Positions 5,787 through 64,000 of a stretch of DNA of 64,000 nt are shown here, in pieces. A program made the translations under genes and the position numbers. Position 1 is the first letter of the stretch; every line of letters begins with the position of its first letter. The stretch is taken from contig NMRA01000564.1 in the NCBI GenBank assembly GCA_002633005.1, positions 89,438 through 153,437 on the forward strand, read 5' to 3'. The notes beneath the pieces were generated by a model. The model searched no databases, had not been told where the DNA came from, and worked only from the letters and a program-made list of their open reading frames with translations. The DNA is from Phoronis australis. Its lineage: Eukaryota; Animalia; Phoronida.

Positions 5787-5820
5787 GAAGGCATTTTGTA
5801 GTGATGTGTGTAAGGAACTT

Positions 5821-30512: not shown

Positions 30513-32539
30513 TTAAGGAGTATCTACGACTGGTGGCAGATACTCGCAACCGCAGCACAGCACCTTGATGGAGACCTTGGCTTCCACGGGATCGATAGAT
30601 TTATCCTGGAACTTGTTGCATTTTGCTGGTAAAACCACCTCGTACGATTTATTGATACACTGGCCCATCAAGTTACACCCATAGTTGACGCAACGCTTCC
30701 TAGGTAGAAAGAAACGTTAAAGTAATTACGGGAGTGCCATACGGAAAACAATATTACATGGCACTATTGCGCTCAATTTATTCAACTTGTATGGCATAAA
30801 CACTTTTAGACATGTTAGGTTCGAATTACTTCTTTTTCCTGCGCTTATCAAATAATGGCTCTTAATTTCAAATATTTCCTTTGGCATAAACTTAAACCAG
30901 CTCTTGTTGGAGTTTGTAGAGGAACCTGGGCTGAGTTCTGTAGAACTTCGATATTTTATGTAGTTGAGCGACCTCAATGCTCAACAATGGCCTCGTCACA
31001 AGCGTTTTGCGATATCCTATTGTTATCCAGCGCGCTATTATTACTAAGCAAACGGGTCTGGATGGATTTTTACTGAAACGCATTTTATGGGAGTTTTAAA
31101 TACTTTTAATTTGTTGTCGACTTTTTCAATTTTGATATTTTGTGTTTTCAACTTAGTCCACTGAAAAACAAAAAGTGAAAATTCCACACCTTGTTGGAAA
31201 GCCTCATCAAATTAAACTAACGATCGAAATACTTTGAAAACATGCTGATATCTTTGCACGTACTAAGTTAGTTTTATGTTTTGGCTTCAGCTATTTATCA
31301 AAGCGGCGTAGGTAAAGGTTTTATTGATTATCGTTTTGACCTTGAAACAAAAACTAAACTTGTAATGAACTCTCTTTAAAGTTTTAATTTTTTTATTCCC
31401 TTTTGTTTGCTACGAAGAAACAAACATCACAGGGATATATTTTTAGCTATTTTAACTCAAACAACGTCACATAGATATGTGCCATTTGACCTTCTCAAAA
31501 GCGTACATGTAGTTTCTGAAAGTACCCTATTGAATAGCGTGTGGTAATAGGTGTATCAATGTTAACACGGGTATGCAAACTCAATTTGTCTCTCTTTATC
31601 TTTTTGCCTCTACTAATTGAAGATTTGTGAACTCAAATGAAATATCAGTCCGAACGAGTTTTCACTCACTATGTATATTTTAGAAATTGCAGCTTCAAGT
31701 AAAATGGCAGTTGCGGTGCCTTGGCCTACGAATGGACAAAGCTGTAAACATTTAAGTTTGTTTGATACTAGTCATTTTGCTGACGCCCGCGTGGTCTTTT
31801 TCGGAAATCAAATTTGTGTTGTGGAAAGATATGGGAAATAAACTGTATGGTTAAGTAACACTGCCCAGTTTTCGTGCCATAGGCAGCAGGTATGGAGAAA
31901 ATTTTCTTTTAATTTTGCTTTAGTTTGTTGAAATCTGGAAAAATCTAAAACTCCCCTCCAACCCCCTTTCCCTTCCTCCACTCATTAAAAGTGAATTCTA
32001 AATAACACCAAAATTGACAATAATAAACTTACTTTGGTTCCACGCAGTGCCAACTTATCAGTTCATGTTCCTTCGAGATAAAACAGTTACCAAGTTGATC
32101 GCTGGTGTACGGACCGAGGGGCAAAGATTCCGGTTTGACTTTACAGTTGTTACAGGCGCAATGGTACGCCCCATTGTCCATCCCGCTACAAACTACGGCG
32201 AGGACAAGTGCAGTTGCGACCGTCTGAAATAAAGATACACGTTCGCAATTCTACTTGCATATTTAAAGAGATCGTGTACTTGCTTATAAATATTGACATA
32301 TATCTCTCGACGTTTTTAGTACGAAGATATATATTTCAATTAGTCAAAAAGCAGTTGGCTCTACCCATTTACGACAAGGCAGTTCAACCAATCACGACTC
32401 GTGAGGTAACAACAGGTAATTGGAACATAGTTTTTGAAAATTCCTTACCAAGAATAAAAAATAAAGATCATTGAGAACAGCTAGCGCAGTTGAAATAAGT
32501 CAAAGCAAATTATAATCAATTAATTACCAACAGCTTCAT
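30513..32539 (-). CDS. Secreted 12-cysteine protein, Spaetzle/neurotrophin-like cystine-knot candidate, paralog 1 (129 aa)
   Basis: Exons (minus) 32539-32528 (MKLL), 32223-32033, 30699-30513, canonical splice sites: MKLLTVATALVLAVVCSGMDNGAYHCACNNCKVKPESLPLGPYTSDQLGNCFISKEHELISWHCVEPKKRCVNYGCNLMGQCINKSYEVVLPAKCNKFQDKSIDPVEAKVSIKVLCCGCEYLPPVVDTP*. Exon structure and all cysteines are conserved in two paralogs. The fold assignment is inferred from Cys spacing. Confidence 0.88.
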
Positions 32540-32589
32540 CTTGCTCGGTGCTCACGGGTTGCTTAGACACGAAGTGCGGGTCTACCAGA

Positions 32590-32670
32590 TGCGTCAGTGA
32601 AATGAAATTACAGGAGCTGAGTGCCGTTGATAAATACGTGGATAGCGTTCACGCATGCGCGTCTGTGCCG
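32590..32670 (-). promoter_or_regulatory. Proximal promoter of paralog 1 (TATA-like TATTTATC, GCGCATGCG element)
   Basis: About 90 nt upstream of the ATG and conserved in position with paralog 2 (TATTTATA, CGCGCATGCGCG). Confidence 0.5.
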
Positions 32671-33159
32671 TCGGCATGAAAAAAGCTGAGAATGAATAAA
32701 CAAGGATTAAAACTATAGAATTGCAAATTTTAGTATTTAATGTTGAATCATTTACCGTTATTAGTATGATTTAGAGGGCGGAGAGTAAATGAAAAGAGAT
32801 TAGCTAACACAGGTGGCGAAAATACATGCGACGTGTCATATTTGGCATGATCGGTCATAACCGATTTGTCGGCTAAATTAAAGCGACATGATAGGCAAGA
32901 ATGGAACACGCATCTCCAAAATTTAAAGAGGAAATTGCAAGGTCCAAGCCAATCTGAACAACAATATGGTCTAAATTCTAGTTTATAATTATCATTGCTA
33001 TATTCTTAACATTAACTGAATTGTACGCCGCTATACAAAGTTATTTAAATATTTAGTGCCGTGGTGTTGTAACGCCATCGTTGTAACGGAGAATAGAAAC
33101 GGCGCCATTTTCGTTCGTTACACATCTGTGACGTGGTGTTGGGGAACACAAAGGAAGCA

Positions 33160-35112
33160 ATGTGTGTCCAAGTGAGTACAGCAGCGTAGATGAGAAATAC
33201 TTTGAACGATACAGGGACGGATAGGTGGACTTTTCAGATGATTCCGACCTTTCGGACGTGGAGGTAGAGGTGACAGATTCCAGAGGAACAATATGTGTTC
33301 ACAGCTTTTCTGTAGTGGAGCCGTTCTCCCTCGATCCCTTTCACGGCCCTTTCTCTGGTCGCCGAAGACTCACTCCCAGTGGGTTCGTCCTGTGAACGTC
33401 AACAGGCTGAAGGTGCGCAGGAGTTGCGATTAGATGTTAGTGATTGGTAAGTCAAGAATGTATCCTACAACCGCGAATTATAACTTGGTCTTTTTTAATT
33501 CAAAAGTAGGTGCTTTACCAGTCAGTCCCAGGCGCCTATATCCCCATTGGTGAATCGTGTTTCAGCCGTGGATAAATACCAGTTTCAGTGATAAAACTGG
33601 GATTTTTTTTGCATTTTAGCAAGTCACTCAAAAAGTGTTAGGTCTCTGATTATTTGTGGACAGTGTGGCTCAGTGGTTTGAGCTCGTGAGACTCAGGTTC
33701 GAATCCTGGGTTTCACTGGCATGCAATTGAGCATTCAACAAAATTGTCTCTTACTTCTCCGAGACTGAGCGGGGTGTTATTAGTGAGTGAATAAATGTAT
33801 GCAAGGGAATGAATGAGCACCACTTTGGAATAATCGACTGTGAATTGTAAAGAAGAGGATGAAAGAATTGCAATTTTATAATTTAGACTTTCTCACCTTG
33901 GTGCTGGGGGAGGGCATAATTCTATTGGTTATAGAACAAGTCATTTCATTTTCGTACTCAAGTCAACTCGGACCTATATCAATCTACGAATGTGTTCCAA
34001 AACAGTTTTATTTTGTAAGGCGATGCTTGAAATGGAAACAACCATTTCATGTCGATGTACATTGACCCAATGTTGCCATTATTTATAAATGAAATATGGT
34101 ACATGGCTTGGTTACGAGTCGACTTGGGTAGGAACCGCCTGGTAAAGTTTCTATAGAGTAAAGAGAGCATACCATTGGATTGGTGATTGCCATACAGCAT
34201 ATCAAGAAGTTTTAATGTATACTGTAATATTTAAAATATGGGCGACCCTTTGAGTGGCAACACTGCTTTTCAAGTTGGCTTGTCCCATTGTCATTGTCTA
34301 GTTTGATTAATGGTATGTGGGTGCCGATAGGATTCAGATTGGGAGAACAGGTCTCACGACTACATACAAAACAGTCCCCTACATCAATGAATCAGGGCAA
34401 CTACCTTTTGTCTTAGGGTCAGCTAAAAATCAAACAAGTAATGTCCATTACTATATCCCCCGGGCATGATCTACCACTGCCTTGGGTGTAGCACTATTCA
34501 TTTGTATGAAAAAGTAAATATCTTTACTATATATGATCAATTTGTACAAAAAATAAATAGGTTGTGATGTTCCAACCAATTTTCCTGAAAACTGAAGTCG
34601 TATGCAGACCCCTCACATTGGTAGAGGCACTCTTGGTAATTTTTTCAATTCGAAATTTTGATGTTTACTGAAATAATGTATTATTGTTGACACATCTTGC
34701 AGGTGCACCTGGGGCAACTGTCAGACAACCTCAGTTGTTGAAGAAAGAGTATGTTGCCAAGAGGTTGACAAGGTTGTTGCAAAACTTGATGAAGAAATGA
34801 AGCGTGACAACTAACACAGAAGAAAAAATGTATTGTGGAGCATGGGGGTTTAAACCTGTATACATCAATCGTGGTGTTTTGGAGACTGCGTGGTTGCAGT
34901 CAGTACAAAAGCCAATATCCTGATGGCTATGACAGACCCTTGGATAAAAGGATTTGACCCGTGGCTTACAGACACTTCCAAAGATGGGTACGCGGTCACT
35001 TAGGACGAACAGTCCGTGTTGTCATTCCAGCATGCACAGTAGCCTGCATCAGAGCTTTCTACCCTCCGCCAGAAAATGAGGAAGACTTTGAGTTCCAAGG
35101 ATTTTCTTAATA
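33160..35112 (+). pseudogene. KolX-like accessory gene remnant (cysteine-rich, P2X7 C-terminal-like) inside the Kolobok element
   Basis: Acidic N-terminus ...VVEPFSLDP...RLDVSDW, an intron, then (from about 34703) CTWGNCQTTSVVEERVCCQEVDKV...CIVEHGGF...INRGVLETAWLQ...AYRHFQRWVRGHLGRTVRVVIPACTVACIRAFYP...FQGF, with stops and frameshifts. Confidence 0.75.
33661..33715 (+). mobile_element. tRNA-derived SINE head nested in the Kolobok element
   Basis: A-box TGGCTCAGTGG and B-box GGTTCGAATCC without intact tRNA arms. Confidence 0.5.
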
Positions 35113-36192: not shown

Positions 36193-36338
36193 CAGGTGCG
36201 GATCCAGGATTTTGAGTTAGGGGGGCCATGGCACGGTATTAGCCAGGATTTTCCCGTCAGACATTCGCACCCCCAAACAGTCAAATGGAACCTGGGAGAT
36301 ATTAAGGGGGGCATGGCCCCCCTCTAAATCTGCCACTA
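36193..36338 (+). mobile_element. Short MITE family, copy 3, nested in the Kolobok element
   Basis: Matches 6788-6942 and (inverted) 1527-1663. Confidence 0.75.
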
Positions 36339-42167: not shown

Positions 42168-44025
42168 GGAGCTATGCATAGTTTTTTATACGAAGGGTAG
42201 TAGAATAACGCACAAGCCTGTTGAAATGCTCAGGAGCAGTTTAGTGCACTCTAAGGATAAACTTCCCCGAGCGTGAGGAAGGACGTCTGAGAGGAAAATA
42301 GTCAACACCAAGTCTGGTAATACGTTCAGGGACTTTCCGATTTTTTCAAGAGGACCGGACTTAATACAACTTGGCTTTGTTAATTACTATACACAAACCG
42401 TTTAATTCCTCGCATAACCAACTGGTCAACTTCAAGGGTAGAGCTCCGACGGAAACAAAATGCCATTTAGATTATGGAGTGCGACGTAAAGAGCCCCTTT
42501 GCACGGAAAACCATGTGGGTTATACAAAACAGCCTAGAAAAACCCGCTTCTCAGCATAAGCGTCCGAGTTACGAAGATTCATACGATTCTGCTTATTTTA
42601 GTCACCCTGTAGCATAGGACGTTTTGATGCAAGTGAGACGGACATTTTGGATTATGAGAAAGACAGGCTATAGGAAAGAAGATTTACACGAGTGGACAGA
42701 ACAGCCGTTATTGATTGGACATAGCGGTCTCGGGTTCCAGTTATGGGATACTAGAACCCTTGCTGATTTGCCGGGTCGTCTTACTAAGATCGTAACATCA
42801 GTTGCTTACCAGTGAAGCTCGCGGGATGCGAGCGCAACCTCATTAAATTGAGTTAATAGTTCCAATATTCGTTTTGAATGTTTTCTTTTTTCTTTTTCAT
42901 CCTGATGTCTCAAAATCAACACGCTTATTTTCGCATTTAAATCATGGATAAACCCGCCTTTCATCACAAAATACAACCAGTACTCCTAGCATGATTTTTG
43001 TTAGGATTGGCTGCGTTTGACCTGAAGGTGCAGTTGAAAACCATTCAATGAAGAACTCTGCAACAGTGTAGTTATTTTCTAGACAAACTCATTTTCTGAG
43101 CAATTTATGTGTTCCCAAAATTTGTCAAATCCACAAATCATTAAAGGGGATTTGGAATTTGGTTGCTAGCGTAGGGCTCCATTTTAAGCAAGGATGGGGC
43201 TTTGCGTTGGTTCTTTGATATTGAAATCTCAATTATTTCGCTACCTTGTACATTCGTCCCTCACATTACTCTGTTTAAGTTTTCGTGAGTTGCACGCTGG
43301 GATGTTGCTTGGTGCTGGCTGGATTGGCTCTCAGACTCTTCTTTTTTCATATGTCGTTTTCTATTAGCTTACTTTTGTGATGTACCTCAGTGGTCGTCGG
43401 TCTGTGAACAATATCATTTGTATGAAATGGTAGTTATCTGTCATCTCTACATTACGATGTCTTACTCTATTATATATTGCACCAGTTTCCCTGACCATGT
43501 GTAGAACTCTGGAACCAAGCATCCTTATCGTCTGTTCATGATGCAATCATTATCATTATACCCTATGTTTCAAATCAATTTCTGGTGACTACCTCGTTTT
43601 TTGTTCATAGTGGTCATGTGTTGTGATTCCATGTTTGATGTTTATTATGTAGCTGTGCCTGTGTTTTTGTGGGTGTTTTGTTGTCATCATCTTGTTTGTT
43701 CTTGCTCTGGGTACCATAATCGAATAGGATTTTCTTCACATTTTATACTCAGCAATGTCTATTAATTAAATTCAGCCACTTTACACTGTACATCATGACA
43801 TATTTTAATGTATCTATGACTCGTTGATTCGAGAATTCTAAACCAATACTTAAAGGACAATGCCACCCGATTTAATTAGTCTTTTTTACCGTCTTAATCG
43901 GTCTGTGGCCGCATCGGCTCGTACTCGGTCGATCTTACCTTGCCGAGAGGTGTCGCGTTAACCTGTGCGGAAGGTGAGAAACTCCGCAGCGACGTCAGTG
44001 GTTTATCTGCAGGGTGAATGCCACC

Positions 44026-44346
44026 ATGGTGTGGTGTGTCGTTCTCGCTTGTGCGATCTATGAAGCTGCGAGGAAAGCAAGTACATCGTTTTTTTTGATT
44101 TCCTCGGGAGCCGAAATGCTTCGAAAATGGCGCGCGGCAATGAAAAATGAGAAGTACGGCGTTCATACCAAGTACGAGGCCGTGAAACATCTCCATGTCT
44201 GTGGCCGGTATTTCGTGGACAGTGATTTCACTGACGAATCCCGGCTTGCCAAACAGTTCATGCCAGGGCAGAAAAAGCGACCGAGGCTGAAGTCAGATGC
44301 TGTGCCTAGTGTGTTCGCGTTCAGAAGGCTCACCCCTATATTTTAG
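44026..44346 (+). pseudogene. THAP-domain ORF of Kolobok copy A (truncated; metal-binding His replaced by Tyr)
   Basis: MVWCVVLAC...FFLI....MLRKWRAAMK...LHVCGRYFVDSDF...RLKSDAVPSVF follows the THAP pattern CxxxxC...W...CxxHF...AVPxxF, with CGRYF in place of CxxHF. Confidence 0.75.
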
Positions 44347-44434
44347 GCTGGGTGTGAGCATGTTATATAACTTGTTTGATGACTTACTCGTTCGTCAGGC
44401 TTCTGTTTGGTCCTCTGGGTGTAGGATGGTTTTG

Positions 44435-44790
44435 TCAGTTCTTTTTCCCAGCCCTAAAAAACGTCGTGAGCACACATCTGTTCAGATGCGGGGCAAAATC
44501 AGGGTGATCCGTGAGACACATTGCTGCTTCTCCAAGAAGGACTTTCATATGTTGAATTTGGTGGCAACAAGCGTCAATCGTTTCCATTATGGTGCAGTTA
44601 GCGCACTGACGACACCATGACAAGTCATTGAGACGATTTAAGGAACTGTCCATATGCTCCATTGTCATTCACGGCGCCTCTCTAGTATTTCTTGATCAGT
44701 GTATTCTGGTTCGAACTGATATCCTGAGAAACCTAGCGATCTACCTGGGAAGTCTTCGTCAGATGAGTACTCCTCCAAGTCGGAATTGCG
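44435..44790 (-). pseudogene. KolX-like (P2X7 C-terminal-like) fragment of Kolobok copy A
   Basis: GYQFEPEY ... RLNDLSWCRQCANCTIMETIDACCHQI...MCLTDHPDFAPHLNRCVL; truncated. Confidence 0.7.
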
Positions 44791-45959
44791 AGTTGACACG
44801 TTGACGTTTGTTACCGTATTGAGCGTTCTGTTTCAAAATGAATTATTCTCACCCTAATCAATACTTATATAAAACTGAAACAAAGTGTGTCTCATTAGAT
44901 GCAATTTGTAATGCCTTTAGAATATTCGTGAGTGCAAATGATTTGAGAAGCCAGCAAGGAATTAATCACTGGGTTACCGACTTTAGGTGCAATAAAACTA
45001 ATTGATCGGACACCGAGGCCGTGTAAGCACTTGGTAATTCAGTGTTTGCTGACAGAAACTGTTGTGGAACAATAACTCGATTTTCTATCCTGCGACCAGG
45101 TGTTAGGAGAATCTTTATGTACATGTACATTATTCAAATAATGATTGTCAATGTACAACTTCTGCCCTGACGGTTCTGTGACCAAAGGGAAACCTGAATT
45201 CGACGCGGCACCCGACGAGTAAGTAGATTTGCAGTTTCGTGGCTAATTCACCAACCACGTGCACATTACTTCTTTGTCTCACTAGTATAGTATTTTCTTG
45301 ACTGGTAGTTTAGTTTCCAACTTTGGTTGGTTTATGTTCGTGATGTCTTCAGTCCGGCCGCGACTGGCCTGATCGGGTTCCGAGCCACTGGTCGGGATAA
45401 CAAGTTTTTTGTGTATTTAGAACTCAAAAAATCACAAGCTTAAACAACACAGATATAGGTTCTCCTGTCTGTATTTCACGGAAGAATACTTTGAATTTAT
45501 CTCCGAACAGACCCCAACTTCTGCTACGGACCTTGGTACATGTAAATTGGCCTGCCGAACTTTGTAGGCGCCTACGGTGTGTCCAAATACCAATAAATCT
45601 GTAACTGCGAAATACAACACGTTTTTATAAGAACTCGGTGTATTTTTAAGGGTTTTACATCGAAGTTAGATGATTTATTGGTGTTAAACGATGAATTCAA
45701 GCGATAAGCTGACACCAGTAACCCGTGTTGTGAACTGCTGAACAGACTGCGTGTGAAACCAATGACGTCATTGGATAATTTCAACACCTCCGTCTGCCGT
45801 CAGGTGTCAGGTAACGCAACCGAACGTGCCGTTATCGAGTAGATTTTCTAATTGATAGAAAAATAAGTTGTTTTTTGGGTGGCATTACTCTGCTTAACAT
45901 CAATAACTTTGTAGTTGTTCTTCACATCTTGCAGCAGCATTTGAGACATTCGGACCAAG

Positions 45960-47230
45960 TTGTAACAAGATATTTGCGGAATTTATTATGAACCGTTTCT
46001 ATGACATTGGTTTCATGGAAATCTCGTTTTTTTTAACCATATAACAAAATTGGCAAAATTTTAGAGTCAAATAATTTCCACCATAGTGAGACCTGCACGT
46101 CAACGAATTTTATCACGTTACTTTTCAAAATTAATAATGCTTTTGATGCTTTTTCAGAAAATGTTTGCGAAGATACGTTTGGTAGAGAATGGTACGCCTT
46201 AATAATTGTATTCAGATGCCAATTGTTTTACCGATTATCTTCCATTCTTCATGACGTCTCAAGTAACCACCCCTTCCAAAAACAACATTTCTTCTTTGAC
46301 ATGTTTACGAGAAATTTCCACCTGTTACAGTAATCTTCTAGTTTTCTAATCAGTCTTTGCATAGCCACAGCTGTTTCAGCAAACATAACAGAACAGAACC
46401 AGATCATCAGCAAACAATGACATATACAAATTAAGTAGTCTTACGCTTGCGCATGATCCACTAACATTTTAAAACATCAAAAGTAAAAATGGTAACAGCT
46501 GGCAACCCTGCCGAATTCCTGATTTCCATTAAAAAAACATCAGTTACAAAACTTTTATCACCAATCAGAACACATGCTTTAACATTGTCATATATATTTT
46601 TCAATACATTGTACATTTTACCTTTGATTCCATGTTCAGTGCTACGTTCGTGATCATTAACAAAATTTACAGCATATTCATGAAGTTGCGAATAATGCTG
46701 TCCCACAGCATATTGAGGGGCGTTATATAAATCTGTGAAACTCCTACATGTATACCACCGCATGCCTGTAATTGCAGGACGAGTCGAATTTTTACTGTTT
46801 TTCTGTCGAGATAACTGTACCAGCGTCGCAGTGGCATTCTTCTTTTAAGTTTAAGAACTTCTTATTCTTGCATTTTATTAGTTATGTTTTTTTTCATTAC
46901 GGTTTCTACGCGTGTTTGAATGTTCAATATTTCGGTTTCTCCTATAATTTCTAAGGTGACTACGCACCTCCAATTTACATTCTTGACACTCTTTGTCAAA
47001 CCAGTTATCGCAACGCCGTCTCTGTGAACAAACTGTCATACCTGAGCTCAAAGCTGAGCGTTCACGTTCATCAATATTACCAGGAAGAGATAACCTTCCT
47101 GATATTACTCAAGTCATCCTGCAGTGACAGCTAGCTCCATTGTCTGTAAACAGTTAATGCTCGATCACTGACGACATGATTTCCACATAAGTGTTTTAAT
47201 TTTGTTCATTCTACTTTATTTGTCTATTTA
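45960..47230 (-). mobile_element. Degenerate non-LTR retrotransposon (LINE) ORF2 remnant
   Basis: Minus-strand fragments NWFDKECQECK, HGIKGKMYNVLKNIYDNVKACV, GIRQGCQL, LFADDLVL and QRLIRKLEDYCNRW are reverse-transcriptase-region motifs, with frameshifts. Confidence 0.75.
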
Positions 47231-48269
47231 ATTTGCATCCCGCGTAGAGAAGATGGCTTCCAGATTCATCATTCATCACTAGTTGTTTTTCAAAATACTC
47301 CAAGCTTATTTTCAGTTCTACAGCACCACCTACCGGGCGTGTGGGATGAGGAAGTACGCGAGGCGTAGACGCAATCATGTCTACTTTTGTGTTGTCATAT
47401 TAAAAATAGTGATGTTCCTTTTGTTAAAAATATTAAGAATATAAAATGTGAGCGGTGTATTGGAAAAACATACATATAGGCAAAAACTCGAGTAAATCAA
47501 GAAAAAATTCGGGTAGCGAAGACAATGAAAATTTCGAAAATTGCAAGATAACCAAGAGGATGAATAATCAGTGGTTACCGGGGGAATCTGACGATTGGAT
47601 TGTGAGAGAGTACAGATGCTGCAGGATTTTGTCCAAAGAGTGGCCGGCGTAGTAATACATATAGGATAGTCTTGCTTAAGACACCGAGCAAAAAACTCTA
47701 CACTTCTTTACAGAAATTATCCTCATACGACATCCAAACAAAGTTCCGAACCCTTTTTCGAAGATTTGCCTATTACTACACCTTACATTAGAGCAGCGGT
47801 TGTCTATAGTAGACCCCCTGGTGAGATCTTAAATGGCGTGCTATTGGGGCGGGGGGTGGTCAGTGAAATTGCGGGCTACTGGGTGGAGGGGGTTGAAAGT
47901 CGATGACGGGGGGAATTCCTGCCTGCAGCCCAGTAACCTACATGGTATGTCCACCCTCCTCCCACATCCACCCCCCAAATAGCCGAGTCCACATGCCTAC
48001 ATGTATCTATTTGTGTCCTTCAATTCCTTTAATTCAGCACTATTAAATATTTATTGTCTTTAGGTTCTGAATGTATTAAGACTTAAGTGAATTGCAGAAA
48101 CAAGTAAAACAAAATTAAATTTAGGTCCCACCACGGAAGCATTAATGCACTTAGGATTAAATAATCAGTAGTGCCCAAAATCATGCAAACCTTTTCACCA
48201 CTGTCCTCCTTCACGTTTAGGTGACTTGAAATCAGTATAGTTCGGTAGTAGCCATTCGTTTACACAAAC

Positions 48270-48385
48270 TTCGTTAAAGACACGACTAGACGTTTTGTTA
48301 ACGAGTTTGATACTGGTACGTCCGAAATTACGAACGTACAAGTATCAAGCTCGCTAACAAAAACTCTAGTCGTGTCTTTAACGAA
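48270..48385. repeat. About 115-bp near-perfect palindrome (foldback MITE-like)
   Basis: TTCGTTAAAGACACGACTAGA..TTTTGTTA.CGAG.TTGATACT.GTACGT / ACGTACAAGTATCAAGCTCGCTAACAAAAA..TCTAGTCGTGTCTTTAACGAA. Confidence 0.85.
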
Positions 48386-48699
48386 ATTTTAGGTGACTGT
48401 GAACCTTCAGTTGTTTACCAAGTTATACTTATTTGTAAATATCTTAAATTCCATTATCTCCAACCTCTAAAAAGTATATATTTTTTGAAAGGTGCGTAAA
48501 TTTTATAACACAATTTATTATTATACTTATCGTACACAACGATAACAAATTAATGATCGGTGTTTAAATGTAGTCTCCATGGGGTATTTTTGAATGGGAA
48601 AGTAATGATTCCTATCAGACTGTGATTTTTCAAATGAGGAAGCCAATTACGAATGTATATCATCGGCTAACCGCGTGCTGTAGGCTTGAAGGAGGTTAA

Positions 48700-50351
48700 G
48701 GGAGAATGCCACCCGATTTAATTAGTCTTTTTTGCCGTCTTAATCGGTCTATATCCACATCGCCTCGCATACGGTTGATCTTACCTTGCCAAGAGATGTC
48801 GCGTTAACCTGTGAGGAAGGTGAGAAACGACGCCAGCGACGTCAGTGGTTCATATGCAGAGTGAATGCCGCTATGTTGCGCTGCATCGTTCCCGCTTGTC
48901 CGAACTAAGTAGCTTACTTCCTCGAGAGTCCGAAATGCTTAGGAAGTGGCTCATGGTAGTGAAGAATGAAATGTACGCTGTAAATAGCATGTATGAGGCC
49001 TTGAAACATCTCCGTGTCTGTGGTCTGCAGACGTCGACAGTGCCTCTGACGAATGCCTGCTTACCAAATAACTCCATATGTTCCGTTGTCTGAGCTTGTT
49101 CACGGCGCCTCTCTAGTATTTCTTCATCACTGTATTTCTGTTCGAATTGATAGCCTGTAAAACTTAACGATCCACCAGCGAAGTCGGCACTGATGAGCTC
49201 TAGCTCGTCCTAAGTCGGGATTGCGAGTTGCCATGCTGGCGTTTATTACTGAGCGTTCTGTTTCAAAATGAATTATTCTCACCCTAACCAATACTTATAT
49301 AAAACTGAAACAAAGTCTGTCTCATTAGATGCAATTTTTAATGCCTTTGGAGTGTTCGTGGGTGCAAATGGTTTGAGAAGCCAGCAATGAATAAATCACT
49401 GCGTTACCGGCTTTAGGGTGCAATAAAACTAATTGACGGGACATCGAGGCCGTGTGAGCTCATGCTTATTTAGTGTTTGCTGGCAGAAACTTTTGTGAAA
49501 CAATTCGATTTCCATCCCAAGGCCAGGTTTTAGGGGAATCTTTACATTACTCAAATAATGATTGTCAATGTACAACTTCTGCCCTGACGGTGCTGTGGCC
49601 AAAGCGGAACCTCTGAATTCGCGGCCCCCGACGACTAAGTAGATTTGCAGTTTCGTGGCTAATTCACCAACATAATCACGTGCACATTTCTTCTTTGGCT
49701 CACTAGTATAGTATTTTTTTGACTGGAAGTTTAGTTTCCACTGAACTTTGGCTGGTTTATGTTCGTGACGTTTGATCAGTTTCCGATCCACTGGCCGGGA
49801 TAACGAGCCAGTCCAGCCGGCCGCGACGGACCTGATCGGGCTCTGAGCCACTGGCCAGGATAACAAGCGTTTTGTGTTTAGAACTCAAAAAATGACAAGT
49901 CTAAACAACATAGATCCATGTTTTCCAGTCTGTGTCTCACGGAAAATACTTCGAAATTATCTCTGAACAGACCCCAAACTCCTACTACAGACCTTATTGG
50001 CCTACCAAACTTAATTTGTGGGCAACGGTGTGTCCAAGTACTAATAAATCCGTAAGAGCGAAATAAAACAACACGTTTTTATAAGACCTCGGTGTATTTT
50101 TAAGGGTTTTACATCGAAGTTTGATGATTTATTGGTGTTAAACCATGAATTCGTGCGATAAGCTGACACCAGTAAGCCGTGTTGTGAACTGCTGAACAGG
50201 CTGGGTGTGAAACCGATGACGTCATTGGATAATTTCATCACCTCCGTCTGCCGTCAGGTGTCAGGTAACGCAACCGTACGTGTCGTTATGGAGTAGAACT
50301 ACTCGATCTAAATTGATACAAATTAGGTTGTTTTTTGGGTGGCATGCTCCT
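48700..50351 (+). mobile_element. Kolobok-type non-autonomous element, second family, copy B (1.65 kb, internally deleted)
   Basis: TTAA|GGGAGAATGCCACCC...GGGTGGCATGCTCCT|TTAA; colinear with 43854-45891 but lacks about 44255-44645 of copy A; degenerate THAP (MLRKWLMVVKNEMY..LKHLRVCG). Confidence 0.85.
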
Positions 50352-51349
50352 TTAACTATTTCAGTTGGTCAAACAGGTTAATCTAATGAGAGGCGAAAAA
50401 TTGGCATCAGTGGTCGACTACGGGACAAATATAGACTGAACTGTTGGTCGTTTCACGTCACACGGACCTCAGGAAAGTTATGTGGTACCTCGGGCCATGT
50501 GACCTGATACCACCCTCTGGTTCGGTACATATTTGTATTGCTGATTGGGGATGCATGTGACCGCGTGCTTTAAAATAATCCTACTGAGTTTTAGACATTG
50601 TGTCATGTAGTGACGAGTCCTCACGTCGCAATAGTCGTAATCTTCGGTGTTAATTACCTTTATTCCGTTTTATTTCCATAAGTCCTAAGGTATCACATTC
50701 GCCGTAATTTTATTCACCTGTGTTTTATGTAGCACATAGTCTCTTTCCTATCAGATTTCATTTTCATTTTGTATCCAGGTTCTTCTACAGACTTCATCTC
50801 TTGCAGTTTTCAGAATAAATAAAAAGTTCAGTTTAAAAGAGCAAAACAAAATGTTGATATGGGTGCACCTCCATCGACAAAGCTAACCGTGGGTACATGC
50901 ATTTATTTCTTTCGGGTATCACTAAGAAAAACTAAATGCATTACTTGTAGCGAAGTTCTTAAACCCCATACTTATCACCTGAGGATGAATAAAAACACTA
51001 GGCCTCAAATTTTGAGTCCTGCCAACCTGAAGTCACGAAACAATCACATTGCTCAAAATTCAACAAAAAAACGTGCAAATCTTGCCCAAAAATGTCATTG
51101 AATACTAAAGACAAATTTGACCACCTGTTCCTCTCTTTGCGAGTTCGAGTGTCCATCATTTTTTATATCCTTCATAATTCCCTGCTCCAAAGTGAGAGGT
51201 CTCAGGGCCACGGTTAGTCGCGGTCACACCAAAGCTGCGTTTTTAGTTTTGGTTTGATTACACGAACTTAAGCTCGTTCGTCAGTTCTCCAAACTGTTAA
51301 AACAGGCTTCACATGTTTAGAAGCTACATAGAATTGGCATTGTCACTTT

Positions 51350-51484
51350 GCAGCAAAGCTGAGGTCGTGGGTTCGACTCCCACTGGGCCACACTGCTAGA
51401 CCCTTGAGTCAGGTTTCTTGCTCCTCAACTCGGTTTTAACTACATATTAATAAAGCACAAAAATAGTTCCAGGTGATCAGTGCA
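51350..51484 (+). mobile_element. tRNA-derived SINE, copy 2
   Basis: GGTTCGACTCC B-box plus a body matching 4010-4130. Confidence 0.7.
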
Positions 51485-52948
51485 ATGGGCCCACATGCGC
51501 ACGTCTGGTACAACGTGTGCCAGACCGCCTGCAATTATTTTTTTATTTTTGCAGCAAAGTAACGTTAAGACTTCATTATTGGTTTAATGACTGGTAATTT
51601 GCAATACTTTCTGGATAGTTTGGTAATTGTATTTATTTTCTGATATATAGGACAAAAGAACATTCCACTGGTTAAAGTTAGGGATTGACGAAAAACCCAT
51701 GTGAAAGATCACAGACTTTTGCAACTGTTCAAGCTGTTCAAATTTCTTCAAATTGCGACAGTTTGTGTAGACCTCTGAAGCACAAACTGTCGTATTTTGT
51801 TGCAACAGTTTGAAGTGTGAATAATTGCACAATCGGTCGTAACCCACAACTTGCAACAAAAGGTACAGACGACAATTGGGGAAACAAAACGCAACGACGT
51901 CAAAAAACGGCGTTACTCACAGACAACATGCACGTAGAGTTCCGTCCAAGAAGTGAAAATTTGTCTCAACTTGTTCTTTGCTCGTATGAGAAGCGGTTTT
52001 TGATGTTGCAAAACAACTGGCAGTTCGTTATTTTCTTAAAATGACACGCCGTGGCAAGTCTAATTGTAGAACCTAGAACAATGACCAGCTGCCAGTTCTC
52101 TGACTGGAAATCATCTTCAGTTTGACCACTTTATAATATGAGACCAACTTCGTAACGCTATATGGTCCAAATGAAAAAGACTTTGTGTCATTTTAGTTGT
52201 GAGTTTTCAAAAATCATTGACTTTTGTGTTCTGGTATAATCAAATGAATTTAAAATGTGTCAATTTCATAAGTAGAACCCTGTACTGTAGTTCACAACGT
52301 TTACTGTTTATTAATCAAAATAGTGTCCGACCTCGTTAGCTTTTCCCTTTTCTCAATACTCTCCTGTTCTAGTGAAACATTTTAAATTGCCATCTCATGT
52401 TCATCAAGCTCCAACACTGACAAGGAGTACAATCATAAGTAGTGTTCTTACGTTCTCAGTTCCATAATTCATGATCTATTGCCGTAAGTACCTCGGGGTA
52501 TTGGGTGTTCAACGATGAGGGAAGAGGCTCTCCGACGGATGTTTATTTAGTGATGACATGTGTGGTATTATTATGACGTTATTTAGACCGGAAAAGAGTA
52601 ACAGGTGAAATCATATTCATTCGATAAGTTCTTCCATTTCCGTGTGACCTCATCATCTACATTACTTCTTGTAACGTCGTACGGAGAATGACGAATTGTA
52701 CCGAATGAGAAATGCACGGCAACATCACATTGTCGACATTAGTTCATAAGTAACCAAGGGCGTCTTCAGTATTTAATGCTTTACAAAACTGCTCATTTGT
52801 GATCGGTGTTCACCGGAAATATTTGCATCTGGCATTGTATACTTGGACATTCATTGTATTGTATTTGCAATCCATAGAACCAATGAACAGAAGCCAAATT
52901 TCCAAAAATAGGTGTACTGTTTAGCGCAATTCAGAAATAGTTTGTCTT

Positions 52949-55900
52949 CTAAACTTTATTTGCGACTGGTGGGTGGTTCGCGCAGTCGCAGCACCACACC
53001 TTGATGGAGATAGTGCTATCGACAGGCTCGATAGGTTGTTCGTGGAGTCTGTTGCATTTTGCAGGTAGAACCACTTTGCGCGGTTTGTTGATACAGCGCC
53101 CCCTAATGTTACACCAGTAGTTGATGCAAGGCTTGCTGGAAAGAAAGAAACGGGAATAATGTATTCTATAAGCTCCAGATTCTAAATAGCATGAAACAAG
53201 TCAGCCAATTATGTCAGTGAGTAGCTGTTTAGAGTTACAGTAGAGTTGACAAAATTCAGATTTCGCAAGGAAAACTCAAAAATGACAACAAAGTTTGTGT
53301 TTCCTGTTGAATTTCTGTTTCATAACTTAAAATGTTCGTTTTGTTAGCAAATGCCCACCACGGAGATGGCGCACGAGCTTTTCCGTCTATGGAGAAGCGA
53401 CGAGCCAAGTTAAACTAATAAAATAAATCCTTTTCAAAACTGATTGACTTCTTTGCGCGAAGTCGATTTTATGCTTTAATTGCTTCAATCATTTTTCAAA
53501 ATGACGTAAATAAAGGTTGTTTGTTATTGATTTTGAGTACTTCGGTTCTTGCATTTTGGCTTTTACACAAAAAGATATATTAGTAATGTTTTTAAGTATT
53601 ATTTTAGATTAATTTCCTCTTACTTGCTAGAAAGAAATAAACATCATGGCCAGGCGTGCGTTCGGTAACGCTAGTACGTTTGCTAGGACCTAGCTAAGTT
53701 CTAGCCAAAGTCACGTGTTCTCATTCAAAATAAAAGGCTTACTCTCACGTAATCTCGCGAAGTCTTGCTTCTTAGCAAGGTCCTAGCGTTACTGAACGGG
53801 AGGTTGGTCTTTCGAGCACGCTGGTACTCTGCGTGCCGCTAGGTGGTAGCCAGCAAGCAGCTGGGTACCAGCGCACGCGCTTTATCACTGGTTGATGTAA
53901 CCTCGGCAGTCATTCGGGTTAGCTTTATAACAAGGTGAAATAATGGTGCACTATGAACGATCTTTAGCCTTGATGCAAGTGGCCGCGTAGCAGCAACTAT
54001 TTCGTTTCTGCAGTAATGTTTAATGGACGCGTTCTTGAAGGTCATACATGTAGCCTACAATAAACACATCGTCATCTGGCCGATTTAACTAGTGTTCTTC
54101 ATACTGTATGAATACAGGAAAGCAACGTAAACAAAAGTCAGTGACAGTAGAAAGACGCACTCAGAAAAGGAGCAACAACAATTTTCTGGGATTCACATTT
54201 CTTGAACATGAATTTTAAGCACCGATTTCTCTGTACAACAGGCTACATTTAAACTTCCTCAATCAGTCATGCCCGTTTGTTTGCGTAAAGCGCTGCCTAT
54301 TGAGAATTCGACCAGCCAATCAGAAACGCCGGTGTCAAAAAAAAATCCCGAGGAAAATTAAATGATACCTAGCTCCGTGCTGGCTACCACCTAGCGGCAC
54401 GCAGGGAACCAGCGAGGTCTTTCGAGTCCCACCTTTATGTTAAATCTCAGAAATTTGTCAATAATTAACCACAGAGACGTAGAAAAATACATTTGGGAAC
54501 AAGTCAATGCACCAAAGAGTTGTTTGTTGAAAGGGTGTAAGTTTTTTCGGAAAACTAGGTTCGAAACATGAAAAGTAAATATGACTAAATTGCTGCGATC
54601 GTGTTACGGATTAGGTATATGCTGAATGCAGGTTACGTTTCTCCTTGTAAATTGTAATGAAAATACTTTCTGCACGAACCAGGTCATCTGCTCGTAGTTG
54701 TAGAGTTGAATATATATTTGACAGTGGTGGTTATCACGTTTCTTCAGGGGCTTCGTTCATCCGACGGTAAAGGTTTCTGTGCTTCAGAGAGGGGAATTTT
54801 TCGCCAAGTGAGGGGGAAATTCTACCTCCCGATCACCATCAATAGCAACCGCGCCCTGTTGCAAACTCTCTGTTTCAAGTAACATTTTGTGCTCTTTCAA
54901 ATTGTCACTTGTGTGGTTACAGGTGGTTTGAACTTCGCTGAGAAATTTTCAATTATTTTAGCGAAATTTTTATTCCTCGTGGGGGGAATTGCGCGTGATT
55001 TTTCAATATTGAGAGGGAATAGGGTCGATATTAAGCCCCAAAATCGAGGGGTTAAGGGCCCTGTCCTATTTGGAAAGACATGCATCATGTTTCAACCCGT
55101 AGTCATGGCTGGCCGAGGATTCACCGGTCGTTGCTATGACGCTCGGCAAACGAGATCCTACAAAATGTGATCAAACTTTCGGAAAATAATCAATTTTAAC
55201 CGGAAATATTTTCCTTCGTCGCGGCGTATGGAACGACCCAACGTTTCCGAATCTCAACGTCTTTAAGTATTGTAAAAAAAGGGTTGTTGGATGTCCGTTT
55301 TTTCTATCGCCGTCCGAGTAATGCCGATTAGCCATTTAACGGAGCAATCGAAGTGAGCTTCGTTTTGAAGCGCGCTTTTTGTGTACGTTTCAGAAAGTAC
55401 CCTATTGTGAATTGCGTAATGGCGATATATATCAAAGTTCACACGATACCCATTGGTGTCCCCTTCCCAACCGGCACCTAAACAGTGAAGTCTAAATAGC
55501 CCCAGGACTGACAATAACAAACTTACTGTGGTTCCACGCAACGCCAGCTGATCAGCTCATCGTCCTTTGAGATAGAACAGTTACTATATTTGCCGTTCCT
55601 GTAAGGACCGAGAGGCAAAACGTTTGGCTCAACCTTACAGTTGTTACAGGCGCACGTGTCGCTGCCCATGTCTGGCTTGCTATAAACCGCGGCGAGGCTA
55701 ATTGCAATGAAGATTATCTGAAATAAAAATGCACGTTTTTATGAACGTTTTTTATTCCACATGCATATAAGTAAAGTTTACAGAGATTGTGAACTTGGTA
55801 ATAAATATTTTACAAAATTGACATATGTACTTCAAACGTTTTTATTACGGAAAATGTCACATTCAACTTTTCGAAGAAGTGGATGGCTCCATACCCATTT

Positions 55901-56451
55901 CCGTCAGAGCAGCTCAAATAATCACGACAAAGGGTGCAACAATAGATAATTGAAATCAAGTATTTGAAAATTATCAACATCAATGAAAATAATGTGAAAC
56001 TAAGTATCACTGAGAATGCCTGGCACAAGTCAAAGCAAACCTAAGCACGGAAAATGATAATCAATTAATTTCCCATAGTTTCACCAAAACATGTTGACTT
56101 GCATGCGATCAGCTCAAACAGTCTTTTCAAAAGGTTAAACTACGTTCCTAGGTGGTTGCTGCATTTTATTAGTCGTCCTGTCTGAATACACAATTTGTTT
56201 TCTGTTTGTGAAATGCGCTTGCGTGACGCTGTTTTTCCATAGTAAAACGTCCAGGCCTTGTTAAAATAGCAGCGTTGGTTATAAGAGTTAGCAAAGGTTT
56301 CTCTGCCAATTTATATAAATGGGATAGGAAATTTTAAAAACAGTATTTCTCGGTTCGAGCTGACATAGAACAGATGTTTTAGTATGCAGATGTAAGAAAT
56401 TTGTAAATTGTAATGAGAGAATGATGATAAATTAATTACCAATAGCTTCAT
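52949..56451 (-). CDS. Secreted 12-cysteine cystine-knot-like protein, paralog 2 (129 aa)
   Basis: Exons (minus) 56451-56440, 55717-55527, 53135-52949: MKLLIIFIAISLAAVYSKPDMGSDTCACNNCKVEPNVLPLGPYRNGKYSNCSISKDDELISWRCVEPHKPCINYWCNIRGRCINKPRKVVLPAKCNRLHEQPIEPVDSTISIKVWCCDCANHPPVANKV*; exon sizes 12/191/187 are identical to paralog 1. Confidence 0.88.
53651..53803 (+). mobile_element. About 150-bp MITE, copy 2 (intron of paralog 2)
   Basis: Matches 37873-38024. Confidence 0.75.
53817..54416. mobile_element. 600-bp Mutator (MULE)-like non-autonomous element
   Basis: About 40-50-bp TIR C.CGCTGGT..C.CTGCGTGCCGCTAGGTGGTAGCCAGCA; 10-bp TSD GTCTTTCGAG at 53807-53816 and 54417-54426. Confidence 0.85.
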
Positions 56452-56499
56452 CTTGCTCAATGATCACAGGAAGCTTAGACACGGAGTTCGGGTCTTCCA

Positions 56500-56580
56500 G
56501 ATGCGTCAATGGAAATAAAATTATTGAAACTGCAGAGTAACCGCTATAAATACGTGATATCGTTCGCGCATGCGCGTTTG
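56500..56580 (-). promoter_or_regulatory. Proximal promoter of paralog 2: TATA box (TATTTATA, 56552-56545) and NRF1-like palindrome CGCGCATGCGCG (56565-56576)
   Basis: About 95 nt upstream of the ATG and conserved with paralog 1. Confidence 0.55.
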
Positions 56581-57149
56581 TGCCTTATGCATGAACTAAA
56601 CGGTCAGAATGACTAAAAACATAACCATAAAATTTAAAAAAGCAAATTTTAGTGTTTATTTCTGAATCATTTTCAGGTATAAATATGGCTTAGTGGGTGG
56701 ATGACAAATAAAAAGTATATAAGCTAACACAAGCCGGAAAATAAAATACGACTAATGTCATGTTTGGCGTAACCGTTCATAACCTTCCGCCGGAATTAAG
56801 CGACGTAATTGACGACAATGAAGTATGAATTAACTGTGCAAAATTGAACAGAACTACGTAAAATTGCCTGAGACAACACTTCAACTGTTGTCAATAGCTA
56901 TCTTCATCAAAAATACTTTTAACGCGTCTGCGTGAATGTGCTTTTCTTTAATTTCGCAAAATCTGCGACCCTCGACTTCCTCTGAAAATAAGTTCATGAC
57001 AATTTTAAAGAGGCCTTGAACGCGATAAACAGACTAAATTGCAATATTGAAAGTGGTTCTCTTTTACTGAAACACAACCTGCTAACCAGGCATTTTTAGG
57101 GTTTGTTCGTAAAGATTTTTAATTTCTGTTGATATCAAAGCATTTTCTT

Positions 57150-57430: not shown

Positions 57431-58109
57431 AGTTTTTTCGAGGAGAAAAGTTTTCTCCGCCGAGAATTTTTTTTCTGGAGGAAACCTTTCCGCTGCAGAG
57501 AATATTTTTTCGTAATAATAATAATGATAACTTTATTTAAAGAAGGGGCCACCGGCCGACAGTTCACAATAGTATATACAAACTTTATGCATGGATGCAC
57601 AGTCATTAATAAATGATTAAACATTTCATTTCTAATCACCATTGCCCTTTGTAGATACATTGAAATGAAATGTTTGTTGTTCTCGAGTTAAAAAGAGACC
57701 GGTTGCATGAAACAGTCCCCTCCCAAATAGGGACTCAACTTAAATCCCTAAATCTTTTGTGTATTTGTTTCGTTGTTTATTCACAGATGCAATACTTTTC
57801 TATCATTTTATCTTTATTATGAGCTTCTCTTTGACTAATGACATTTTCCAATAATATAATTAAAACCTGAGCACTTAATTCAATCAAAACAATTTTCGAC
57901 GTAGTCCTTAAATTAGGGCGTTGCATGAAAAACCCCTAATTATTTTCAGTAATATTGCGAATTCAATGTTAACTTCACTTTCCATTTGTATCAAGCCAAA
58001 AATTCATCAGCCGTTTTCAGTTTCTCATGTGTGAGTTGAACATCGAATGTTCGCTGTGTAAAGTATCTGCTGCTGCGTCATCTCCCCACATAAATACTTT
58101 TCACAAGAC

Positions 58110-60347: not shown

Positions 60348-60980
60348 TATATTTGTAGTAGGCTCAGAGCGATAATCTTAACTTACTGTAGGAACCAATT
60401 TTTCTGGTGTTACCCTTTAAGATAGGTTTTAAACAATTTTTTCTCACACATCCAATCGTCGACAATAAAAAGACACGATCCAATGACCCAATTAATAACA
60501 GATTGGTAAAACGTCAAAAGTCTAAATTTTCAGGCTGTTTGAGAAACTATGTACTTTTACTGAATTAAAATTTACTGTTTCCATGGTATTTTGCTAAATG
60601 CACAGCCGTGTCGATTACGTCATACATATCTTTAACGAAAGATTGAAGTATATCGTTTTTTCGATGAAGCCAAGTATTTTCAATCTTTCAAAAATACATT
60701 TCATTTATAAACGTGCGTTTGCCTCTATGGCGTCAATGTTATTATACGTTTAATGAATGTAACGTGTTAGACAACGAAAAAAATCAATTGCGTATATTGG
60801 TATGTGTGCGTTTTTCTTCTTACAGAGAAATTTGAACTAACCATTTTGATGATTGTGAGAAACGTTCCTTTGTGGTCGACAAGGAAATGTCTGTATTTCA
60901 TGAATCAAAAATCGATGAAATTCAATTAATCAACTTCGAAATTTTTCTTGCAATTTTTATCATCTTTAGTTGGAAGGTTT

Positions 60981-63926
60981 TTATGTTTGCTTCTCCAATT
61001 TCACGGCGCATTCGCAACAAAGCAGTTTGAACCTGAGTTCAACTGGAAAGGGCATAGCGAGCTTCTTCGCGGAAAGTGTTCGACATTGTGCCGGCACCAC
61101 GACTTCATAGGGTTTGTTGACACATCGGCCCCTCATGTTGCACGCGTAGTTGAGGCATGGGCGACTGAAAAGAGAGAATAGATCGAGGATTGTTTATTAC
61201 GTCGGATTTCGTAAGCAGGTGAAATCTCTTGAGGGTTGTTGACGGTTACAGAGCATCGTTCAGATTCTACATTGCGACACACAATTAAGATCCCGTTGTA
61301 ATTTTCTTTTTCAAGGGACAAGGGCCCACCTACTGTCCGTGCAATAGCTCGTGAAGGACTCAGAAAATTGACTTAGGTAAGACGATACTCTTAAATTTCA
61401 TTTAATTTTAACATAAAACTTAAATTTTTCACAAGTTCGTTTCAGGAAAGTGAACTTAAGTTTGACCTAAGTTTTTGACTTGAGTTTTGTCTAAATTTTG
61501 ACTAACTTATCTAATGCGGAAATTTCAAAGTTTGGAAGCTGAGACAAATCTTAGACTTAAGTAAAAAATGAACTTAAGTCAGTTTCAAGGAAAGGGACCT
61601 AGTACGTTAGCCGCTACACTACGAGGTCTGTGCTTCTGTAGAATTTCCGTGTAACCATTTTGGTTTGACCTAAGTTTTTGACTTGAGTTTTGTTTAAATT
61701 TTGACTAACTTATCTAATGCGGAAATTTCAAAGTTTGGAAGCTGAGACAAATCTTAGACTTAAGTAAAAAATGAACTTAAGTCAGTTTCAAGGAAAGGGA
61801 CCTAGTACGTTAGCCGCTACACTATGAGGTCTGTGCTTCTGTAGAATTTCCATGTAACCATTTTGGTTTTATAACTTGTTCATACATACTGAGGTGGGCC
61901 AAATCTGTTTGGGAGACTTAAAGGCCATTGTTTTGCAGTTGAAGATTTGACTTGGGATATACTTATTCATTATTAATCCGTAGTTGGTTTAGCGGGTGTT
62001 TCAGTCTGCCTCAGGGTGTTTAGTTTCTTCGACAACAATAAAAATTTTTGATATCAACATCGTGTTTTGCCTGGCCCAACCTGTTGTACTACATATATCG
62101 GTTTGATTTTTTTTGTTTGTAACTGAAACCATAAATCAAATTTTACAATTTATTTCCAACGTTTGCATGTGCGTGTCCAACAATAAGCAGTCCGAACTCA
62201 ACTTACGTCAGTACTGAAGTAGAACAGAAAACCAGAACGTTTACCTGCAGTTTGATTTCAGAGGTATTACCTCTGGACAGGCGGCAACGAGGAGTACTGA
62301 CGTGTTGATGTGATTGCAACAATACAACTAGAATTCAATATTAAAAATCTTTCCATGCAGCTCGTAAACGGCGGTGCTACGATTAACAGGTTATTAAGCA
62401 ATCTCTGCTAAAGGATAAAAATTCTGGCAATATTTACCGTAAATTATCAACTTAACTTTGTGCAACTGAAAAATGATGAATGCTGCTGCATAAGTCTTGT
62501 TACTATGGTAAGACGGTTTTTTAGTAACCGTTGCTTAGGAACTGTCGCTCCCAGTTAAAAATCGCCAGCATAGTCTAAAGTACCAATATGCCAAGTTTCG
62601 TGCTTTTGTCACAATTAGAGCAATTTTACCCCTTTTGCACCTTACCTTGCATCCAGACTATCCAATCGTGCCTATACTGTTAATTTAAATCGTTCTGATG
62701 ACCAAATTTGATTGCGACACTCGAAACGCATTCCGACATACTTACTCAGGCTCGATGCAGTGCCAGCTGATGAGTTCTTTGTCCTCAGTGAAGTAACAGT
62801 TATTATAGTTACCGCTGGTGTGGGGACCGACAGGAATGATTTCTTGCTTAACCTTGCAGTTGTTACATGCGCATATGCTGGGATGCATGTCTTGACCAGA
62901 GCAAGCAACGACAAGGCATAGTGCAGCGATGAATGTCTGTAATAACAATATTTAACTTTTTTCATAAATGCTTGCATTTATCGGGAATTTCCTAAAAGAA
63001 GCCCACCCAAACGTACGTCCACGGGCGTACCTTTGAATTTTTTTCCAAAAATATGTTCATGGGCGTATTTTCGGTATCTTCGTATCTTCGGATAGAAAAT
63101 ACGCCCGGACGTATATTCGCTTTTAATTGACGTTACTTTTCGAAATGTCGTTTTCTGCATAGCCGATCATTTCGAAAATTCCGGGTACTAAAGTTACATT
63201 CGCACTGGCAACTTTAAACGTTTTGGCTAAATCGTGTAATCTGAAAACGCCTTAGCAATAAAGGCGAAACGTTGTTTTTTATCTGCGCTATATAGTTTTT
63301 CGTTGCAACCGCCTAAACAGAGACACATCAGCCAAAAAAATGTTCATGCGTTACCGAAGAGCCACCTTTAGATTAAATTGGTGATTGTCATCCTCGTGAA
63401 AACGACTTGAATTTAGTCGTTGCAAGATTTGAGCTTTGCGCTTTTTAAAATGACTTTTTAACTACTGTATATTTCGATGTTTTCTGATCAAAAAACAATC
63501 TGTCAACTGCTCGTCACTTTGTCAATTTTTCTGCTAGAAGGCAAAGCACGTCTCTTTATTTGGTATGGCGAGACATAGACGTAGTACAGTTCCCTTATAT
63601 GGAAAATATGACTTTCGACCGTTGCTGTAAAAAATCTATGGCAATTTCAAGCAATTGATGCAAGTCCTCACAGACTGTTTAAAATTAGTTATAAAAGTAT
63701 AGTAGTATTCAACTTTATTCTGAAATGCACTTGGAATTATTTTTGGAAATTGATTGCTCCACTGGCTTGCTGTGCTCCTCGGATTCAGAGTGTGAACACA
63801 CGTGATAATCTGCCGCTAAAGGCAACACAATCGAAATATAGCAAACCAATAACAAAAGCTTTTAGACGTTCATCGCAAAATACGGTGACTGAAAAGCTTT
63901 CAGTCTATATTTACCTGCATCTCCAT
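60981..63926 (-). CDS. Secreted 12-cysteine cystine-knot-like protein, paralog 3 (128 aa, most divergent)
   Basis: Exons (minus) 63926-63915 (MEMQ|GTAAAT; less certain), 62936-62746 (191 nt), 61164-60981: MEMQTFIAALCLVVACSGQDMHPSICACNNCKVKQEIIPVGPHTSGNYNNCYFTEDKELISWHCIEPDRPCLNYACNMRGRCVNKPYEVVVPAQCRTLSAKKLAMPFPVELRFKLLCCECAVKLEKQT*. Confidence 0.85.
61461..61866. repeat. 203-bp tandem duplication in intron 2 of paralog 3
   Basis: 61461-61663 and 61664-61866 differ at only a few positions. Confidence 0.9.
63480..63780 (+). repeat. Dispersed repeat family, copy 3 (intron 1 of paralog 3)
   Basis: Matches 7830-8140. Confidence 0.7.
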
Positions 63927-64000
63927 GTTTCTGGCTGTCTCTGACGAACTTTTGTCCTTCTGATGTGACTAACCAAAAATGACGTCGTTTCTGCAGGCAA

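Follow-up and report, generated by a model that had tools for sequence, protein, structure and literature searches.

Three tandem genes on the minus strand of a 64,000-nucleotide stretch of the Phoronis australis genome (assembly GCA_002633005.1, contig NMRA01000564.1, positions 89,438 to 153,437; hereafter the window) make up a real, expressed orphan family of 12-cysteine proteins that are likely secreted and probably form a new variant of the cystine knot. We refer to these genes as gA, gB and gC; coordinates are those of the window and residues are numbered as in gA unless stated otherwise. The family was proposed in an initial annotation, which read its cysteine spacing as Spaetzle/neurotrophin-like. 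A growth-factor cystine knot remains the best reading of these proteins and a likely one, if unproven.

A six-frame scan recovered the cysteine blocks, three N-terminal and three C-terminal, at the positions given in the initial annotation; together with a 12-nt first coding exon upstream in each gene, they follow the shared exon layout it had described (12/191/187 nucleotides (nt) in gA and gB, 12/191/184 nt in gC; Table 1). Once spliced, these exons give open reading frames (ORFs) of 129, 129 and 128 amino acids for gA, gB and gC, respectively, free of internal stops, and all six introns have GT-AG borders. The genes are indeed almost invisible to ORF calling, as none of their exons is among the 41 ORFs of at least 100 amino acids. 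The proteins share 43-56% identity (72/129 positions between gA and gB, 59/127 between gA and gC and 55/127 between gB and gC), a likeness not due to chance, since tblastn between the gene copies returns E-values of 1e-11 to 1e-21 per exon. The three paralogues are under purifying selection, with ratios of nonsynonymous to synonymous substitution rates (dN/dS) of 0.55, 0.25 and 0.37 among their mature regions. Because the introns and flanks of the gA and gB units are still 68-81% alike by blastn, these two genes are the younger duplicate pair. Neither tblastn nor nhmmer detected a fourth copy or relic within the 64-kb window, at the edge of which gC lies.

Splicing and expression were assessed from four sequencing runs (X1-X4) mapped onto two stretches, using raw reads for X2-X4 and contigs for X1; the RNA nature of X1 is a guess, and among the runs listed none is on record as RNA. 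The predicted junctions, for which RNA-seq had been suggested as a check, were joined as modelled at all six introns. In X2, X3 and X4, respectively, gC intron 1 is crossed by 119, 259 and 1 reads and intron 2 by 135, 300 and 2, with corresponding counts of 2, 27 and 4 and of 2, 57 and 9 for the introns of gA. Both gB introns are joined in X1 contigs only, raw-read depth on this gene being ~0-2 in X2-X4. Read strandedness agrees with minus-strand RNA, transcript 5' ends lie at 63962-63969 for gC and near 32588 for gA (where nine molecules end in X3), 36-49 nt upstream of the ATG, and poly(A) tails are found near 30395 (gA) and near 60852 (gC). Rough levels taken from depth tables are ~77, 171 and 1 mates per million per kilobase for gC and ~2, 28 and 4 for gA in X2, X3 and X4, so that gC abundance ranges ~170-fold between runs; X1 contig depth on the exons is ~2,200-11,000, contig depth being a poor measure of level. 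The differences in gA, gB and gC levels between runs indicate that the paralogues are regulated differently.

Table 1. Coding exons of the three 12-cysteine genes and the gA duplication unit, in window coordinates.
Feature	Position	Strand	Evidence
gA exon 1, coding part (4 codons)	32528..32539	-	read junction 32223/32528
gA exon 2: remainder of leader, C26, C28, C31, C51, C64	32033..32223	-	junction reads; paralogue tblastn
gA exon 3, coding part: C71, C76, C82, C95, C116, C117, C119, stop	30513..30699	-	junction reads; paralogue tblastn
gB exon 1, coding part	56440..56451	-	X1 contig joint 55717/56440
gB exon 2	55527..55717	-	X1 contig joints
gB exon 3, coding part, 187 nt	52949..53135	-	X1 contig joint 53135/55527
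gC exon 1, coding part	63915..63926	-	junction reads
gC exon 2	62746..62936	-	junction reads
gC exon 3, coding part, 184 nt	60981..61164	-	junction reads
gA duplication unit	29260..32862		blastn vs gB unit 50591-56784; families D2, D4, D6, D13, D17

Several sequence elements flank these transcripts. The first poly(A)-like hexamer in the 3' untranslated region of each gene is the non-canonical AATACA (30415, 52865 and 60897, minus strand), which in gA, at 30415, stands 20 nt before the observed poly(A) tail. A conserved proximal promoter is common to gA (32580-32665) and gB (56495-56580) on the minus strand, in which a GC-rich palindrome is accompanied by a TATA-like box and, close to the start, by a cyclic AMP response element (CRE)-like half site; a CRE-like site is also present in gC, at 63980-63990 (minus strand). 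We use the TATA-like and CRE-like names as presumed labels for these elements. A 596-nt X1 contig with a depth of ~460 matches the region downstream of gA piecewise (29944-30190; 9 differences in 67 nt), and could represent the 3' end of gB, or else that of another paralogue beyond the window.

The 12-cysteine pattern reported initially is matched exactly by all three proteins, with cysteines at positions 26, 28, 31, 51, 64, 71, 76, 82, 95, 116, 117 and 119 (the last three shifted by +1 in gC) and spacers of 1, 2, 19, 12, 6, 4, 5, 12, 20 (21 in gC), 0 and 1 residues. Each protein also has the hydrophobic leader expected of the proposed signal peptide, as judged by a heuristic hydropathy scan only (Kyte-Doolittle, 9-residue window), with a peak of 2.8-3.3 within the first 17 residues and values of at most 1.3-1.8 after residue 25. 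The proteins are thus likely secreted via a signal peptide, and cleavage placed by eye at 17/18 would yield a mature protein of 111-112 amino acids (~12.5 kDa). The cysteine domain does start close behind the leader, with C26 as its first cysteine, though the distance is ~8-9 residues rather than the ~7 first given. Since all three genes have in-frame stops ahead of the ATG and exon 1 is spliced straight to exon 2, the main transcript carries no prodomain; among the joints listed, the original claim on this point stands. No dibasic cleavage site is conserved across the three proteins. The absence of a prodomain had been presented as an oddity, which it is not within the superfamily, where short N-terminal regions occur in bursicon, glycoprotein hormones and Norrin (PMC4079206).

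No relatives of this family were found outside the window. Every homologue search was conducted exon by exon, which lowers sensitivity, in collections weighted towards microbes. No Pfam family was matched, including IL17 and PDGF, and PDB sequences yielded no relevant match. A word-indexed search of proteins longer than ~110 amino acids scored 0 of 34 and 0 of 118 candidates, and comparison of an exon-2 profile with 1.84 billion protein representatives returned no true homologue; four long repetitive proteins that matched this profile were rejected as summed-repeat artefacts without the cysteine pattern. Likewise, none of the 46 and 496 pattern matches in metagenome contigs, nor of the 22 and 67 in viral contigs, could be confirmed. 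A literature keyword search, which cannot search by sequence, found no description of the 12-cysteine family. The initial statement that this is not a named family agrees with all of these searches, and the family looks lineage-restricted.

At the sequence level, six of the cysteines are ordered as a growth-factor knot would have them (I-IV, II-V and III-VI, with V-x-VI and a small ring), and this holds in two registers. Both use C31 as Cys I, C82 as IV, C117 as V and C119 as VI; the putative Cys IV and V are separated by 34-35 residues, and the pattern ends in C-x-C. Register A, which underlies the initial annotation, has C64 as II and C71 as III (spacers 32, 6, 10, 34 and 1; ring of 11 residues), and register B has C71 as II and C76 as III (spacers 39, 4, 5, 34 and 1; ring of 9 residues). 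The cystine-knot superfamily is defined by 1-4, 2-5, 3-6 pairing and rings of 8-10 residues (PMC3224965).

Structure models were built for single exons, whereas the knot would span two, and their predicted local distance difference test (pLDDT) scores of 50 and 54 indicate low confidence. Each model contains one hairpin. That of exon 2 pairs C51 with C64 across a turn at 57-58, leaving C64 an improbable candidate for knot Cys II. That of exon 3 is long, with strands at residues 88-98 and 101-113, and its register, extended by arithmetic, sets C82 opposite C117. IL-17A/F accounts for 8 of the 14 Foldseek rows for the exon-3 model, including the top 4, at E-values of 4.7-9.6; as exon 3 does not contain C64, any IL-17 match must use C71/C76 as the ring. 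The segment from C76 to C82 is an invariant C-N-x-x-G-x-C in all three proteins; PDGF/VEGF, noggin and coagulogen have a similarly short III-IV segment with a Gly just before Cys IV. Register B is favoured by the 8-10-residue ring classes, by IL-17 rows obtained from a piece without C64, by the pairing of C64 with C51 in the exon-2 model and, as a lead, by this III-IV likeness together with the long I-II spacing of coagulogen (~38 residues) and its spare cysteine just before II, and overall the evidence leans weakly to C71-x4-C76 over C64-x6-C71. The first reading of the spacing therefore fits the sequence as regards a cystine knot, with its Spaetzle/neurotrophin register being one of two, and the less favoured.

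Several points temper this reading. Spaetzle and NGF rings are larger than 8-10 residues, which weakens the ring-size argument for register B; the models are of low confidence and limited to single exons; and none of the 14 Foldseek rows for exon 3 is significant at the E-values given above. A further Foldseek search against BFVD gave 128 rows, none of them significant. The lack of any significant profile, sequence or structure match for the exons, together with tandem duplication, the degree of identity and high sample-specific expression, which are typical of secretory effector families, would also suit a different disulfide-rich fold, that of an unnamed defence, inhibitor or toxin-like secretory protein whose resemblance to a knot lies in by-eye spacing. 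We consider such a fold unlikely, given the long C82-C117 hairpin in the exon-3 model and the terminal C-x-C combined with an IL-17-led Foldseek list. We also count against it that the 12-cysteine pattern is not known to fit the spacings of three-finger, VWC, antistasin, TIL, prokineticin and pacifastin proteins.

If the knot instead had its 11-residue ring at C64-x6-C71, the proteins could be of the Spaetzle/neurotrophin type and act as pre-activated Toll or Trk ligands, an account we find very improbable. The C-x6-C segment and terminal CC-x-C are present, Spz3 and Spz4 carry extra cysteines (PMC2586362), and intron 2 falls inside the knot, as introns do in several spz genes (PMC8296651; compared for intron presence only). 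However, Spz1 has a prodomain that is lost by cleavage (PMC9427763), and the protease-removed prodomain of these ligands has no counterpart here. Neurotrophin knots also conserve a glutamine along with the six knot cysteines (PMC2586362), whereas the alignments of gA, gB and gC have no invariant glutamine column. In addition, the exon-2 model pairs C64 with C51, and no Spaetzle, NGF or coagulogen chain occurs among the 14 and 34 Foldseek rows.

Horseshoe-crab coagulogen offers a second comparison. It has ~38 residues between Cys I and II, an extra cysteine ~6 residues before II, and a helical N-terminal half with a peptide released by the clotting enzyme. We take it, as a lead only, to share with the phoronid proteins a long finger 1, an extra cysteine shortly before II, a III-IV segment of 5 residues that ends in Gly-x-Cys, paired cysteines near the C-terminus and an N-terminal C-x-C. 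Many extra disulfides, predicted here, are likewise a feature of coagulogen (PDB 1aoc) and Spaetzle. This likeness raises the rather improbable alternative that the knot serves as a bulk effector rather than a receptor ligand, an abundant clotting, gland, blood-cell, wound or matrix protein whose spare cysteines mediate cross-linking or polymerisation. High expression in some samples would fit, as would the X1 contig depth (a poor measure) and the six cysteines beyond the knot; moreover, coagulogen is a Spaetzle-like knot that works without dimerising (PMC2586362). On the other hand, the cysteine domain here starts at residue 26 of a protein with a short mature form, with no helical N-terminal half or removable peptide like those of coagulogen, no conserved dibasic site and no sequence, structure or Pfam match for the single exons.

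Other knot families show partial likeness. PDGF/VEGF share an extra cysteine 5-6 residues before Cys II and C-N-x-x-G between III and IV, but their ring segment is C-x-G-x-C rather than C-x4-C, and Pfam PDGF was not matched by single exons. IL-17A/F heads the weak Foldseek list for exon 3; points of difference are the 12 cysteines here and the lack of a Pfam IL17 match for single exons. The C-x4-C ring segment of IL-17 occurs here under register B only, finger 1 here is ~2 times the IL-17 length, and the III-IV segment is far shorter than in IL-17. Among invertebrate IL-17s there is a full six-cysteine type, and more than ten copies occur in amphioxus and some molluscs; this T1A type and the Trunk/PTTH/CFSH clade match what is proposed for our family in being small secreted knot cytokines that have the complete set of three knot bonds and, in some invertebrates, have expanded to multiple copies (PMC11087794). 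Glycoprotein hormones, bursicon and DAN/Norrin are similar in having no prodomain, a short N-terminus, 10-12 cysteines and a spare cysteine per finger (PMC4079206, PMC3224965), and the N-terminal region is short in cnidarian knot hormones too (PMC4079206). Hormones with an 8-residue ring differ, however, in their C-x-G-x-C (as defined in PMC3224965), which is absent here, where no two cysteines are spaced x3 and the ring is 9 or 11. Finally, molluscan CRNF is a secreted protein of 123 amino acids with 11 conserved cysteines and a proposed knot (PMC3966541), but it has C-x6-C-x3-C in place of C-x6-C-x4-C and is otherwise unlike by eye, as judged from a 23-residue epitope only.

Taken together, the three knot readings make a knot of some kind likely. 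Our leading proposal, a plausible one that we hold tentatively, is that the paralogues are secreted growth-factor-type cystine knots acting without proteolytic activation as short-range cytokine-like signals. The genes, their splicing, the differences in expression, the cysteine pattern and purifying selection are shown by the data; secretion, fold, disulfide pairing, dimer formation and a signalling role are inferred. On entering the secretory pathway, the proteins would be trimmed of a 17-18-residue leader and would form knot bonds C31-C82, C71-C117 and C76-C119 around the 9-residue ring of register B. Finger 1 would comprise 39 residues and end in a hairpin with C51 opposite C64, and finger 2 would run from C82 to C117. 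The spare C26, C28, C95 and C116 would anchor the N-terminus to the core or join two chains into a dimer, so that up to three extra disulfides, some perhaps interchain, would brace the knot. Once released from particular tissues or states, the proteins would be active as short-range signals; with no prodomain to remove, control of activity would fall to transcription and secretion, which fits the strong paralogue-specific differences between samples. It is possible, if doubtful, that the family represents an undescribed branch joining an IL-17-type 9-residue ring with a coagulogen/neurotrophin-type long finger 1 and three extra disulfides, released ready-made and diversified into sample-specific paralogues. 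If true, such a branch would connect the IL-17/Trunk clade structurally with the Spaetzle/coagulogen/neurotrophin clade.

Cystine-knot ligands are drivers of animal immunity, development and endocrine control, and their diversity in invertebrates is undercounted, because short, multi-exon, fast-evolving genes escape both annotation and profile search. The three genes described here are RNA-validated, show strong and differing expression, and have no counterpart in the very large protein collections queried exon by exon. A true knot would bring in a subfamily whose disulfide pattern is new; otherwise, they would still constitute an abundant orphan secreted family.

Elsewhere in the window, a multi-exon receptor tyrosine kinase gene lies on the plus strand (10296-27200). 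Its exons include one that is TSP1-like (E 0.0017), others of C-type lectin type (E 0.0006-0.0015), a transmembrane exon and exons recognised by eye as IPT-like; among PDB entries, its kinase matches MET best (E 1.3e-8), and a Sema domain was not seen. The combination of a lectin/TSP1 ectodomain with a MET-like kinase may be unusual, and the passages of PMC6374515 consulted make no mention of lectins. Expression of this gene is low in X2-X4, with one junction seen. A ligand-receptor pairing of the 12-cysteine proteins with this kinase was considered and dropped, since its basis was proximity only and the kinase gene is barely expressed in the runs. An EXOG/endonuclease G-like gene (Endonuclease_NS, Exog_C) occupies 2361-5786 on the plus strand, and two diverged THAP-domain element copies ~4.4-4.8 kb apart, probably transposon relics, lie between gA and gB (43850-50300). 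Strand-biased RNA coverage of ~25x at 57716-58109 is alike in X2, X3 and X4, with many reads running on into sequence unlike the window, and probably reflects a repeat within another transcript.

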